Below, piece after piece: positions 16,214 to 28,082 of a stretch of DNA of 64,000 nucleotides. Position numbers and translations under genes: made by a program. This DNA comes from Eledone cirrhosa. Taxonomy: Eukaryota. A model generated the notes under the pieces. That model was not told the DNA's origin, did not search any database, and saw only the letters and a program-made list of their open reading frames with translations. Numbering within the stretch: the first letter of the stretch is position 1; each line of letters begins with the position of its first letter. The DNA is taken from contig OZ024740.1 of NCBI GenBank assembly GCA_964016885.1, positions 200,198,001 through 200,262,000 on the forward strand. Reading direction: 5' to 3'.

Positions 16214-17777
16214 GGTGTATGTTGGTTAAATTCCTTAAAACTGTAGAGTGCTCAACTAATCGGGCTGGAAAGTGCCAATCGTATATGTAATATAGAATAT
16301 GCTTCAATCAATCCCGGTTGGAGCTGTATAAATGAAGTAATTCCGTCGGAAAAGTCCAGGAAAAAAGAGTGCTCTGTGTAGGTAACATAGCTTAATAGTT
16401 ATGTAATAAACAACATAAGGCAATTATTCCATTTACCAGTGGTATCTTAAAGGCAAATAATTTTGCTTTCAATCCTCAGAATGAAAAAATCCTGGTCTGT
16501 TTATTGACTTTGGATTTTACAAACAAAAATGCAATCTATATGAAAGTGAGGCTGGAGAAAGAAGAAGGAAAGGAAAAATAAAATAAAACCACAGATGCAA
16601 ACACACACACAAACACACACACAAAAGCATACATACACACACACACATATATATATATATATATATATATATATATATATATATACATACACTCATACAT
16701 ACACACACACATATACATATATGTGTATATAAATACACACATACACATACATATACACCTACATACATACGCACATAAATATCAACACATCCATAAATAC
16801 ACATACATGTATACAACCACACACACATATATACACACATATATATATAGAAATATAAATATATATATATATATATATATATATATATATATATATATAT
16901 ATATATATATATATATATATACATGCATACACATACACATACATATACATACATACATACATACATGCACACAATCATACCTATATACACATGTACATAC
17001 ATACACATACATAAATGCGTACATATGCATGTACAAAATTATGAAAATATACACACCTCTACATATTCACACACGCAAATAAATATAGGAAAAAATATAT
17101 ATAAAAAATTAAATAATAAACAGTTGACAGCGATACAAGCGACGAGTAGATGAACAGATACGCGTGGTAAGCAATACACACAAATACACGTACACATATG
17201 TACGAAAAAGTAAATACATACACAGACTCTCACACATAAATATACATATACAAATACATAAATACATACATACACATACACAAATACATACACAAACACA
17301 CACATACACACACACATATACATATATACACACACACACATACACACACATATATATACATATATATACATACATATATATATATATATATATATATATA
17401 TATACATATATACACACACACACATACACATATATATATATATATACATACACACACACATACATACATAGCTATACAATTATACACATACAAATACGGA
17501 CGTATCACAAACACGCACAACCAAATACAAACACACACACATACATATATATATATACATATATATATATATATATGTGTGTGTAAAACTCAATATTAGA
17601 TAATTCATATGAACACTATATATACATATATATAGTAGTAATGTAATAAACAACATAAGGCAATTATTCCATTCACCAGTGGTTTCTTAAAAGCAAAGAA
17701 ATGTTGCCTTCAATCCTCAGAATGAAAAAAACCTGGTCTATCTACATATACATATATATATATATATATATATATAT

Positions 17778-18100
17778 ACAAATGATAATAAGGGCGCTGC
17801 GGAGTTGCAAATGGGTTACATATGAAAAAAGTTTGTCCTTCATCAGTGATCTTCCAACTATCATAGGCATTTCATCGCTTTAAAGACCATATACCTCCGG
17901 TTGGTGCGAGCAACGGCTAAAAAAAAGTCGTTGGGACACGTAAATAAAGGGGACGCGAGGGTAAACAAACAAAATGGTGAGGCAACAGAAAGTGAGGAAG
18001 AAGGATACAAGTCCCAGATTTCTATGAATTTAAGTTCGATGAAATCGTGAACGAGAGAATAAAGACCATCAAACCTGGTTGAAATGTGAGCAAGGAAGGA
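17778..18100 (-). mobile_element. Secondary insertion into the (TA)n of the second pLTR; related copy at 25092-25246 in opposite orientation
   Basis: Absent from the first pLTR; 17820-17978 is the diverged reverse complement of 25092-25246. Confidence 0.75.
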
Positions 18101-18215
18101 TATACACATACATACACATACATTATGGTATGTGAAGGGTAAGGCAAAAAGAATACAATGCCATAGATTGCATTTTTGTTTTTAAAATAAAAATTCAATA
18201 AACAGACCACGATTT

Positions 18216-18275
18216 TTTCATTCTGAGGATTGAAAACAAAATCTTTTGCTTTTAAGAAACCACTGGTAAATGGAA
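18216..18275 (+). ncRNA. Type I hammerhead ribozyme (intact, GUA site)
   Basis: TTTCATT-CTGAGGA-TTGAAAACAAAA tc TTTTGCTTTTAA-GAAA-CCACTGG-TA-AATGGAA; four variant copies on the minus strand near 12457, 13747, 16427 and 17667. Confidence 0.82.
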
Positions 18276-18839
18276 TAATTGCCTTATGTTGTTTATTACA
18301 TAACTATATATATATATATATATATATATATATATATATATATATATATATGTATATATATGTGTGTATGTGTGTGTGTGTGTATATATGTATATGTCAC
18401 TGCCATTCTTTCCATTCTATTTTCCTCTTACTAATTCTGCTCCTCATTTAACCTCCGTGAGACTTCTCTTAAATAAATCTTTAATTGTTGTCTAGAGAAT
18501 TAGGAGAACTTGCAGAATAACAAGACTCACTATTTAGCCTTATGGAAATTAATCTATGTGTGTGTATGTAAATGAGTTTCACCAGAGATCATTACGAAAT
18601 ATATGAAATACAATTTCTTTACAACAGAATATTTATGTGAATACATTTGCCTCAGATATAATTTTCTCTCAGCAAGCGGTGATGAATCCACATTCAGTAA
18701 CAGTATTGCCATACAAACAATTAGTAAACGATAGCCATAAACAATACCACGAAATACGCTATATATCTTACTGGTCCATCCTATAATATTGTATGATCAA
18801 TATCATCATGATTCGTGGTATAGTTAAGCCCCGTTACGT

Positions 18840-18915
18840 GCTCAGTTAAAATCCAGCCGAGGTTAGCTTTGGCTTTCATCCTTACGAGGTCGATAAAACA
18901 AAGCACCAGTAAGAG
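18840..18915 (+). mobile_element. SINE fragment (Meta-core-like)
   Basis: CCGAGGTTAGCTTTGGCTTTCATCCTTACGAGGTCGATAAAA, the same core as 42228-42416. Confidence 0.7.
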
Positions 18916-18999
18916 AAAGTGCCAAAAATATTCATGAACTGGGGTCGTCCTGGAAGCAGGGTCATTTGCTGAATCACCTCAGGTCATTACATATGAATG

Positions 19000-25444: not shown

Positions 25445-25855
25445 TAATATTAATTCAAGATATTAACAAAAATAGACATTCGTGTGATCAACTATATTTT
25501 ATTATACATATTTCAGAGGTACTGAGCTAATTTCAACAGTACGTCCTCATAAGATAAAATAAGATGATGCATGACATACCCTGACATAGTAGATGGTTAA
25601 GAATCTTAACCATCTACTATGTCAGCGTATGTCATGCATCATCTTATTTTATCTGATGAGGACGTACTGTTGAAATTAGCTCAGTAAATCTGAAATATGT
25701 ATAATAAAATATACTTGATCACACGAATGTCTATTTTTGATAATATTTTGAATTAATATTAAGAACTCCTGAAAACCGGTTTTGTTGAGTGCTTCCAATC
25801 TATTGTAAAACTCATTCTTTGATTTATTCATTGAACCTTGTTTAACCTTTAAATA
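25445..25855. mobile_element. Non-coding head-to-head PLE insert, near-perfect palindrome of about 315 bp plus tail
   Basis: Arms 25445-25602 and 25604-25761, centre GGTTAAGA-A-TCTTAACC; right arm continues about 90 bp to (TA)n. Confidence 0.88.
25645..25711 (+). ncRNA. Type I hammerhead ribozyme
   Basis: TATTTTAT-CTGATGA-GGACGTACTG..CAGTAAATCT-GAAA-TATGTA-TA-ATAAAATA; the minus twin has CTTATGA. Confidence 0.8.
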
Positions 25856-25874
25856 TATATATATATTATTTGTT

Positions 25875-25978
25875 CATAGCTACGGCTTCCTAAAACCGTA
25901 TTTCTTTGGAGATACGAAATATTTATACATATCGTATAAAGCTATGCTTGAAGCGAAATCCTATTTCTTTTTTTATAT
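25875..25978 (+). mobile_element. Fragment of the 36552-36822 family
   Basis: CATAGCTACGGCTTCCTAAAACCGTATTTC..; reverse complement of 36552-36652. Confidence 0.75.
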
Positions 25979-25994
25979 GTATATATATATATAT

Positions 25995-26187
25995 ATACAA
26001 ATATATTACACAGAGAGAAGTGTGTTACACAGCGAGATGTGTGTAAAAGATTATTACATGTGTAACACACTTCTCTCTGTGTAATATATTTGTATTTGAG
26101 CTCAGATGAAAATTCTCTGTTCTTCGAGAGAGAATACTATTATTACTGTGAACTGACTGCGGAATACTTTAATTCCGATCTTTGTAT
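25995..26187 (+). mobile_element. Mini head-to-head PLE insert
   Basis: 37-bp inverted arms (25995-26031 and 26059-26095) plus a tail of about 90 bp with CTC-AGA..TCT-TC-GAG; (TA)n flanks. Confidence 0.65.
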
Positions 26188-28082
26188 ATATATATATATA
26201 TACAAATGGATAGTCTGATATGTATATACGTAATATATGTGATTTGTAGTCTTTTATAGACAATATATATGCCAGCAAACAAACCATAATGTTTTTGCTA
26301 TGCATTTTGTTAAGGAAGGCGTCATAAGTATTAAATTATATATCTCAGTATTCCCGTGAAAACGTACAACTAAATTTAGTTAATTTCCCAAGTCTCAGGT
26401 TATATTTCACGACGTATTCAATTTACACCATCTTCGTATGTTATCCATATCTTCCTAATACATACAACAACAGAATGCATATATATATAAATAGAGAGAG
26501 AGAGAGAGAGAGAGAGGAAGAGAGAGAGAGAGATAGAGCGAGAGCGAGAGAGAGAGAGATAGAGATAGAGAGAGAGAGAGAGAAAGATGCACACACATAT
26601 ATATATATACACTATAACAGAAACAGATGCCTTTACCTGTAGATGCTATGCTAAACTTCTTAGAACAGTCAAATATAACGCCCACCTACATAGTCACTTC
26701 GCACATATACACACGCACCCACCCGCACACACACACACACACACACACACACACACATATTTATTTATATATATATATATATATATATGTAGGAGGTGAG
26801 TTTTATTGTAGTACAATAAAGCAATGCAGATATCGGATAAGAAGCACTCTACAGTTTGTAGGACTGGAGTATACATAATATATAAGTTCAAAAGATGGTT
26901 AAAGGAGTTCCATCTATTTTATTATGCGCATTTCAAAATCAAACATCATCATTCAATAATATTTGTGTTTTCATCAGATAAAACAGGAGAACATGATATG
27001 AAGGCTAAAAAACACTTGTGGATAGTGCAGTTTTAAATCAACATATGAAAAGTAGTTTTAGATTGATGTGTGGTATTGGGAAACATATTTTATTTAGAGC
27101 GGGGGGGGGGTGGAAAGGATGAAAACAGGGGAGGAGATGAGAGTGAAGGTGGAGAGGGAGAGATGGGTGATAGAGAGAAAGAGATAGTTTTTATAACTGA
27201 GAGAAGATATATTGTTTTACATAGAGAGGTTGAAAACCGTTGGAAGATAATGTATAAATTAAAAGAATTTGAAGATTAACGAAGGGAAAAATATGTACGA
27301 GGAAAAAATATTTTATTTAGAGAGGAGGGGTGGAAAGGATGAAAAAAGGGGAGGAGATGAGAGTGAAGGTGGAGAGGGAGAGATGGGTGATAGAGAGAAA
27401 GAGATAGTTTTTATAACTGAGAAAAGATATATATTGTTTTACATAGAGAGGTTGAGAACCGTTGGAAGATAATGTATAAATTAAAAGAATTTGAAAATTA
27501 ACGAAGGGAAAGAGAGGGAGTTGATATGTATTGAGATTTAAAAGTTTGAAGATAGAGAGAAAAAATAATAATTGCGGATGAATATTCTAACGTCAAAAAG
27601 GTGTATGTTTGTAAGTATTATGGCAATTTCAAGATTAACGAAGAGAAAAAAATTATTAAGGTTTGTGTATTGAAGTTAATGTTTGTATATTGAAGGAATT
27701 GATAATATGTGCGAAGAAAGAGTTAATATGTATTAAAATTATTAAGGTTTGTGTATTAGATGATTTGAGAAAAATAATGTGAAGTTAAGGTTTTTATATT
27801 GAAGGAATTGATAATTTGTGCGAAGAAAGAGTTAATATGTATTAAGAATGAGTTAGTTGATGGGAAGAAAAAAATATATTATTAAGGATGAATATTCTAG
27901 CGTCAAAATATATTATGTATACTCCAGTCCTACAAACTGTAGAGTGCTTCTTATCCGATATCTGCATTGCTTTATTGTACTACAATAAAACTCACCTCCT
28001 ACATTAACTTGCTCCTTAACGGTTGAGCGCTTACTCTCATATTGGATACCTTTTGATGGTCTTTTACCTCTTCTTCTACAAC

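Follow-up and report, generated by a model that had tools for sequence, protein, structure and literature searches.

The 64-kb stretch of the Eledone cirrhosa genome analyzed here (C1:200198001-200262000 in an assembly of 3.0 Gb; the whole stretch is called the window) is dense in inserts that lie in (TA)n tracts and are built as two inverted arms of unequal length. Based on motifs of their open reading frames (ORFs) and on features of the elements we assign these inserts to the Hydra clade of Penelope-like retroelements. Their arms end at two sites, here named J1 (end of the short arm) and J2 (end of the long arm), and each site is closely followed by a copy of a bulged hairpin. This motif consists of a 4-bp RYUC/GARY stem, a 2-nt bulge on the 3' side beginning with U and a variable upper stem. 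It appears to be a real and new cis-element of a known retroelement clade, with a proposed integration mechanism that seems well constrained. Each hairpin is probably a docking site in the RNA which holds one reverse transcriptase (RT) 2-7 nt upstream, and both 3' ends of the (TA)n target probably prime on one RNA, at J1 and at J2; we rate this reading somewhat better than even.

A preliminary description of the window had proposed that tandem stem-loops define internal priming sites and that one RNA or ribonucleoprotein dimer could prime both ends. The genomic predictions of this proposal were borne out. That the hairpin causes the priming position, that it acts as RNA, and that one RNA molecule carries two RT subunits, possibly as a dimer, is what we infer from the arrangement of the genomic copies.

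Two end sites bounding the tail

The order of the parts in the element is hammerhead, J1, hairpin 1, J2, hairpin 2 and ATG. The stretch from J1 to J2, 65-170 nt long in the families studied, corresponds to the known one-sided tail. Two of the inserts in the window carry ORFs, namely a member of family D (28083-30484, + strand) and a member of family E (16213 to 14082, - strand).

For family D, 51 alignments from 30 loci were obtained with a query located 5' of J1, and 43 of them stopped against a TA tract at J1 (21) or J2 (22). The remaining eight were explained by internal duplications (5), locus edges (2) and the end of the reference (1). With a query placed 1 kb further 5', 21/30 copies stopped at J1 and 7/30 at J2, while 2/30 left the locus inside the tail. 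All resolvable copies of this set (28/28) ended at one of the two sites, and the two sharp junction peaks just 5' of a motif which the preliminary description had expected were found. Families A and E showed a like two-site behaviour, with the family E query overlapping the tail and the family A query containing an inversion centre. Contigs from a public sequencing run, possibly of the assembly's own sample, had loose TA ends at both sites of family A (75 and 313 contigs among the loose ends listed), and the depth on family A in this run fell several-hundred-fold past J2, from more than 1 million to about 7000.

Across 12 junctions of seven families, the last base of 392 of 401 TA-ended copies lay 1-8 nt 5' of the motif, with modes of 2-6; the count covers ends near the anchors, and overlapping loci were possibly counted twice. 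Additionally, every junction displayed 2-7 nt of TA-type microhomology, as the preliminary description had noted. This microhomology is the basis of one alternative, according to which it sets the ends by itself, while the hairpins are either there by coincidence or have a role in translation or as a promoter. However, none of the 38 other TATA/ATAT words in the 3' untranslated region (UTR) and tail of family D was used as an end in the 28 resolvable copies. These words include an internal TA-like tract (30527-30535, +), a decoy control through which all family D copies read. The scatter of junctions over TA microhomology that would have spoken against the earlier proposal was thus not seen. 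The enrichment and covariation of the motif across unrelated tails, described below, also contradict this alternative, which we consider largely refuted and to which we give next to no credit. A putative third end site of family D, suggested by clusters 24 and 26 of a later cluster set, was rejected because it is the same internal TA tract that the copies read through.

The preliminary description had placed every junction of motif-bearing elements 1-8 nt 5' of a stem-loop. This holds for the Hydra-type families but not for other TA-targeting elements. A Neptune/Nematis-type element at 4040-10125 (with DKS(G) and a CX4CxxC linker) has two sharp ends at a distance of 60 nt but lacks the RYUC/GARY motif, and several further TA-targeting families likewise have two sharp ends without the motif. 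By eye, a different possible hairpin follows each end of the element at 4040-10125. The TA-targeting de novo clusters 41, 42 and 63 and clusters 13 and 56 of the later set carry an octamer-like word past J2 and no hairpin motif. Classic tails of 40-45 nt with a different short word in common were seen at window positions 36555-36813 and 25875-25972 and in de novo clusters 20, 24 and 38; these may be of the Penelope/Poseidon type.

A second hairpin after J2

Hairpin 2 was found after J2 in all six families (A, B, D, E, F and G). In the window copy of family D, hairpin 1 lies in the leader at 27921-27945 (+), with J1 mostly 4 nt and sometimes 7 nt 5' of it. Hairpin 2 follows at 28011-28028 (+), where J2 at 28004 is 6 nt (in a minority of copies 4 nt) 5' of the hairpin. 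This second motif at 28004-28029 was as described before, and it was present in 30/30 read-through copies.

In family E, hairpin 1 (16371-16391, -; J1 after 16395) is degenerate in the window copy. Hairpin 2 (16250-16324, -; J2 after 16327) is 75 nt long and precedes the ATG at 16211-16213. The preliminary description had called the second motif at 16301 degenerate, which was due to mis-pairing. The true partner of its 5' word 16321-16324 is 16250-16253, with the standard bulge, and therefore this hairpin is intact. The window copy of family F hairpin 1 (26100-26128, +) is degenerate as well, its 3' half being mutated; other genomic copies of hairpin 1 in families E and F are intact.

Read-through copies of families A and B carried hairpin 2 at 3 nt (A) and 3-4 nt (B) past J2, as found with search patterns that required the 5' word and left the 3' half and the pairing free. 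It was also seen in read-through copies of family G. For family F, the query did not contain hairpin 2, which was found 7 nt past J2 in two read-through copies of seven loci. Among families from random sequence, an intact hairpin 2 was present in three more and a variant form in several. J2-ended arms never contain a copy of hairpin 2, which is nevertheless conserved as well as hairpin 1.

Structure of the motif

Unselected sequence (1.264 Mb) and the fetched loci were scanned de novo, and 233 two-armed candidates in 68 clusters were left after filtering of microsatellite artefacts. The descriptor used for the motif comprised the 4-bp RYUC/GARY stem, the 2-nt bulge on the 3' side starting with U and two further pairs, all located no further than 25 nt into the tail. 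It matched 21 of the 68 tail clusters, compared to 61 of 4000 random windows (1.5%) and 267 of 13600 shuffled tails (2.0%). Neither the reverse complements (0/68) nor later windows (0/39) matched. Many of the 47 motif-negative clusters were artefacts, decayed single copies or members of other clades. The pairing of the descriptor match in cluster 19 was spurious and was rejected; its real pairing came from the pairing-blind test.

The descriptor was written with the tails already seen, and therefore the pairing-blind test is the stronger evidence. Here, only the lower-stem words and U as the first bulge base were required. The next three pairs were formed in 87 of 96 cells, from 32 distinct hairpins of which a few belong to related families, against a background of 35-50% in random sequence. 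With other bulge lengths of 0, 1, 3 and 4 nt the corresponding numbers were 47, 23, 28 and 47 of 96. The lower stem occurred in three complementary versions (21, 9 and 2 hairpins), the length of the hairpin ranged from 18 to 83 nt, and 26 different upper-stem signatures were present. The fold, which likely forms in the RNA, is supported by covariation and comparison.

Pairing of J1 and J2 within one insert

In the six families, 81 of 82 two-armed inserts had one J1 and one J2 end. The exception was of the J1/J1 type, and no J2/J2 insert was among the 82. Families A and D, for which the query was neutral between the ends, yielded J1/J2 in 51/51 inserts, which an independent choice would almost never produce, with the caveat that many family A copies have one inversion centre in common.

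Sixteen long inserts were followed to their far end, of which nine were two-armed and resolvable, four one-armed and three unresolved. The J1/J2 rule was kept in 9/9 resolvable inserts, in either direction, and also in both long elements of the window. The family D element has an inverted arm of 5'-truncated 3' UTR and pseudo-long terminal repeat (pLTR) plus tail at 26787-27908 (-), with hairpin 1 in the arm's tail at 26846-26870 (-). This arm ends with J2 (26787) against (TA)n, whereas the far end of the element (31558-31568, +) is J1 against (TA)n. In the family E element, the far end (12362-12620, -; pLTR and tail) stops with J2 and the inverted arm (18163-18307, +) with J1, both against (TA)n. 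The longer arm may be J1-ended or J2-ended. In six long inserts the J1 arm was longer by a whole element, and the second end passed hairpin 1 and stopped at hairpin 2; in four the reverse was found. The arm-length classifier lacked full references for families D, G and H, and its labels for the longer arm were used only where checked.

The two arms of an insert share source variants. Divergence between arms within and between inserts was 0.022 and 0.065 for family A, 0.041 and 0.069 for family D, and 0.026 and 0.059 for family E (permutation p 0.0002 each). For the likeness of arms in families G and B the p values were 0.018 and 0.07, respectively. In addition, 64 of 81 inserts were near-symmetric, both arms stopping at nearly the same 5' point, which was often a quasi-palindrome. 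These shared 5' stops lie upstream of the predicted ribozyme cut, and therefore the template is not usually a cut linear RNA. A strong 5' hot spot, located within stem II of the hammerhead (L242:1375-1395), is the start of most short family A arms. The same hot spot is reused by tandem deletion junctions and may be a transcription start.

Near-symmetric inserts with many palindromic centres and arms that share variants would also be expected if priming occurred once and the cDNA then snapped back at a palindrome and copied itself. The hairpin, as a DNA stop or as a site of endonuclease resolution, would in this case fix the second end. Such a fold-back is akin to self-priming as modelled by Arkhipova et al. 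(2013; PMC3846280), who read the palindromes at inverted junctions as self-priming, and to the endonuclease-resolution idea of Craig et al. (2021; PMC8557442). It could further draw on the Drosophila tail, which the endonuclease required in order to recognise plasmids (cited in PMC11167929), and on the counts of G-U and A-C pairs given below, which do not separate the strands significantly. However, fold-back of a short J1-primed cDNA would yield J1/J1 inserts (1/82; J2/J2: 0/82). The six inserts with a long J1 arm and a short J2 arm, and the four of the reverse type, would need ad hoc rules, and the conservation of a hairpin 2 that never enters a J2-ended arm is not accounted for. Moreover, the Poseidon element studied by Frangieh et al. 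(2024; PMC11167929) initiates at both sites in vitro. We therefore disfavour fold-back and regard it as unlikely.

Two RNAs from one source locus, each with one RT subunit, could also be used if an asymmetric dimer assigned one subunit to hairpin 1 and the other to hairpin 2. No strand displacement, as required with one RNA, would then be needed, and J1/J2 pairing and shared variants would follow if expression in a cell comes mainly from one locus. Penelope hammerheads are indeed thought to act as dimers (PMC4209133). On the other hand, the asymmetry itself would be unexplained and the common 5' stops in 64/81 inserts fit one molecule more simply, which makes this arrangement quite unlikely in our view.

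The same sharp ends would be expected if the hairpins were marks for RNA cleavage, with a nuclease cutting just 5' of them and ordinary 3'-end target-primed reverse transcription starting from the new ends. RNA-seq reads of Poseidon do end at the initiation sites (PMC11167929). A cut at J1, however, removes the tail and hairpin 1, so that both arms cannot come from one molecule, and 81 J1/J2 pairs among 82 would not arise from independent molecules. In the purified Poseidon system, initiation is internal on a long RNA (PMC11167929). Cleavage marks are accordingly a very unlikely explanation.

Proposed mechanism of integration

The reading that we prefer, with two priming events on one RNA, would proceed as follows. 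The endonuclease would cut both strands of the (TA)n tract, and RT would bind the RYUC/UN/GARY hairpin, with two RT molecules, possibly as a dimer, sitting on hairpins 1 and 2. Each target 3' end would pair with 2-7 nt of AU sequence just 5' of a hairpin, from where RT would copy toward the 5' end of the RNA. At a local palindrome the two cDNAs of the same sense might then be joined head to head, followed by fill-in.

RT would copy sequence located 5' of the hairpins, and a full-length cDNA would therefore need a hairpin downstream of the ORF. The template would accordingly be tandem, tail-ended (from a J2-ended parent) or an RNA circularised by the hammerhead; such circles have been proposed by Cervera and de la Pena (PMC4209133). 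An ordinary transcript primed in its 5' leader would yield abundant short fold-back inserts, and we propose this as the reason for the vast excess of such inserts over full elements. For family A, head-to-tail arrays of four full elements with a period of approximately 3.5 kb were found at C1:91476611-91487267 and C1:437200343-437210965. A retrozyme-like tandem with a non-coding unit of 257 nt, in which both hairpins are kept, was present in locus L244.

Several observations weigh against this mechanism or against the hairpin as its signal. One J1/J1 insert exists, and 4/16 long inserts have no inverted arm. Fold-back or gene conversion could likewise make the two arms alike, and the near-symmetry of 64/81 inserts is predicted equally by fold-back. 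The distance from J to the hairpin ranges over 2-7 nt, both among families and inside families D, E and G, and therefore local TA microhomology co-selects the site. Both tests of the motif started from what had been seen or fixed beforehand, as stated above. Folding energies were not beyond those of shuffled sequences, with z-scores mostly between -0.07 and -1.81, one of +0.04 and one of +0.51 in correctly oriented windows; of ten folds, that of 3598-3635 was disregarded as being of the wrong strand. In the predicted minimum-energy fold of the 183-nt family D leader neither hairpin is formed. G-U pairs outnumbered A-C pairs by 8 to 2 (p 0.055) and by 5 to 2 (p 0.23), a lean to the sense RNA which is not significant. 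Finally, Poseidon differs in its start sites, as discussed below.

A wider form of the proposal is tentative, and we hold it at slightly less than even. According to this, the whole clade would use a two-site RNA scaffold in which each hairpin loads one subunit of a telomerase-related RT at a fixed offset. One RNA would thereby program symmetric twin priming of a double-strand cut, and the hairpin would be a portable initiation signal that can be repositioned.

Assignment to the Hydra clade

Craig et al. (2021; PMC8557442) define the Hydra clade by RT and a C-terminal endonuclease, the DKT and RWK-type motifs and a CxCX5C linker. The present elements resemble it in these features and in the pLTR hammerhead, the (TA)n target, the inverted 5'-truncated copy and the tail at one end only. 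The single ORF of family D (28083-30484, +) encodes RT followed by a C-terminal GIY-YIG-type endonuclease, recognized by eye, with DKT and CxCX5C; in the window copy it is frameshifted near 28330. A full HMMER search with the family D protein yielded 445 relatives at E<=1e-30. A word-index protein search with the N-terminal 177 amino acids as query gave no match, and in Pfam no match was obtained for the Hydra-type ORFs of the window. The ORF of family E (14082-16213, -) is broken into pieces and is of Hydra type as well (RWK, DKT, CxCX5C).

The change from DKG to DKT was present in families A, B and D. In 71 sequences D117 and K118 were invariant and W38 nearly so. An N-terminal RWK was found in the leader ORF of family E, whereas families A, B and D have RW followed by R or T. 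Three ORFs of the window (28280+, 14082- and 32491+) showed by eye the CxCX5C linker, an endonuclease free of CCHH, and CxxC and CxH near its end. The units of about 3.5-4 kb exceed the size of less than 3 kb that is typical, although not strict, for Hydra elements, because of their long 3' UTRs.

Hammerhead cores sit in the pLTR, 5' of the first end site. Canonical forms were identified by eye and by core pattern in families D, B, C and others, while the core of family A is a variant and the hammerhead of family E is unconvincing. The family D hammerhead is of type I by eye (31463-31531, +; core 31470-31476), with a predicted cut near 31524, approximately 44 nt 5' of J1; the convention was taken from File S2 of PMC8557442. 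An Rfam search of the window and seven loci gave no match at hammerhead or hairpin sites and only microsatellite-driven miRNA matches. In the family A hammerhead a U3-A8 core pair apparently replaces C3-G8, judging by eye. An apparent long palindromic stem III of this hammerhead was also noted by eye (L242:1330-1445, and L358).

Occurrence in other animals

Of six published Hydra consensi inspected by eye, three contained the motif, namely Hydra-2_Amil from a coral and Hydra-1_Ajap and Hydra-2_Ajap from a sea cucumber. Variants were seen in Hydra-1_Obim and Hydra-1_Crog, and the Hydra-1_Amil consensus does not cover the region. Hydra-1_Ajap has two copies of the motif before the ATG, and its 3' end falls on a TA-rich stretch just ahead of the first copy. 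Ten loci from metagenomes were also inspected. L301 and L305 matched by descriptor and L309 by eye, and L302 and L308 carried degenerate forms. The other five had no motif at the expected place, and the loose descriptor gave incidental matches elsewhere. Short DNA words of the motif-negative families found no relevant match in the Naiad/Chlamys/Hydra supplement.

Other features of the window

Further copies of hairpin 1 in the window belong to families A, B, C, G and H. Family A has three: 21939-21962 (+; short two-armed insert 21845-22013), 10939-10962 (+; insert 10818-11013) and 1958-1981 (-; insert 1910-2098). Those of families B and G are located at 3586-3605 (-) and 1756-1790 (+). Two were not listed in the preliminary description, the family C copy at 25765-25790 (+), in the hammerhead-bearing insert 25447-25855, and the family H copy at 60680-60698 (-).

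All eight strings quoted earlier for these junctions were located, although several lie outside the span of 16301-28029 given for them. Their positions are 10927-10942+, 21927-21942+ and 1978-1993- (family A), 3602-3616- (B), 26089-26103+ (F), 12418-12430- (E), 26867-26886- (D), and 1741-1759+ and 31658-31676- (G). The two second motifs quoted are at 27996-28029+ and 16301-16336-.

A 91-nt unit is present in five tandem copies at 39446-39903 and contains a sequence that resembles a degenerate hammerhead core. The region 45424-54897 contains nested copies of a non-LTR retrotransposon (ORF of 1175 amino acids; RVT_1, E 2e-27) with (TAA)n on the flanks. At 22150-24090 and 55800-59950 decayed DNA transposase-like ORFs, by eye pogo/Tigger-like, and a decayed set of Rep/helicase-like ORFs, by eye Helitron-like, were present.

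Relation to known systems and significance

Priming of both target ends on one RNA is known from twin priming of L1, which results in an inversion and in which the second primer uses variable internal sites via microhomology. Here, in contrast, a structured motif marks two adjacent sites that do not vary, and the two cDNAs therefore overlap. Structured RNA also positions RT on an internal template in telomerase, by template-boundary and RNA-binding elements, and in hepadnaviruses, by epsilon; the likeness of the present hairpin to these is by analogy.

The Hydra clade is already known, as are initiation at two internal sites and the prediction of a dimer, and descriptions of the one-sided tail and the inverted arms go back years. 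Hydra tails of 30-40 bp were ascribed to endonuclease resolution (PMC8557442), whereas the longer tails found here are bounded by the duplicated hairpin. In a word count, "stem-loop" does not occur in the main text of that paper, whose supplementary figures were covered in part. The insertion units of Adineta vaga Penelope elements (Arkhipova et al. 2013; PMC3846280) are like ours in having direct and inverted pLTRs, an optional tail on one arm and palindromes at the inverted junction. They were, however, explained by self-priming on an antisense template, and neither "hairpin" nor "stem-loop" occurs in a word count of the paper.

In vitro, the Poseidon element PAc of Anolis (Frangieh et al. 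2024; PMC11167929) cuts and extends both DNA strands. It initiates on the RNA at two internal sites, which delimit the genomic tail, does so independently of ribozyme cleavage, and is predicted to form a dimer. These results support parts of the mechanism proposed above. An AT-rich target is common to PAc and the present elements, and the genomic footprint of the latter matches initiation at two internal sites. PAc, however, begins copying within the ORF, inside an AC-rich loop and without homology to the target at the start site, whereas the ends described here lie 5' of a hairpin in a non-coding leader with 2-7 nt of TA microhomology, and not in an AC-rich loop. A conserved cis-motif or its duplication is not described for PAc in the text of PMC11167929, the Figs S1-S2 of which are available as pictures. 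Searches of the open-access literature turned up no conserved and duplicated bulged hairpin as a mark of the two sites; subscription papers, Repbase notes, closed bioRxiv supplements or the figures just named could overturn this.

The integration of Penelope-like elements is a long-standing question, and the only in vitro system provided two start sites and no signal that specifies them. The motif is short and duplicated, it covaries over about 30 divergent families and is seen in several phyla, and both ends can be predicted from it, so that it offers a direct experimental handle. It can serve as a diagnostic for the annotation of Hydra elements and their non-autonomous derivatives, and structural studies of the closest relatives of telomerase RT could use the hairpin as an RNA ligand. 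Should the hairpin prove portable, it would allow the start point of RT on an RNA to be chosen. The scaffold reading, if true, would account for the tail of Penelope elements, for their inverted arms and for why tandem or circular templates are required.

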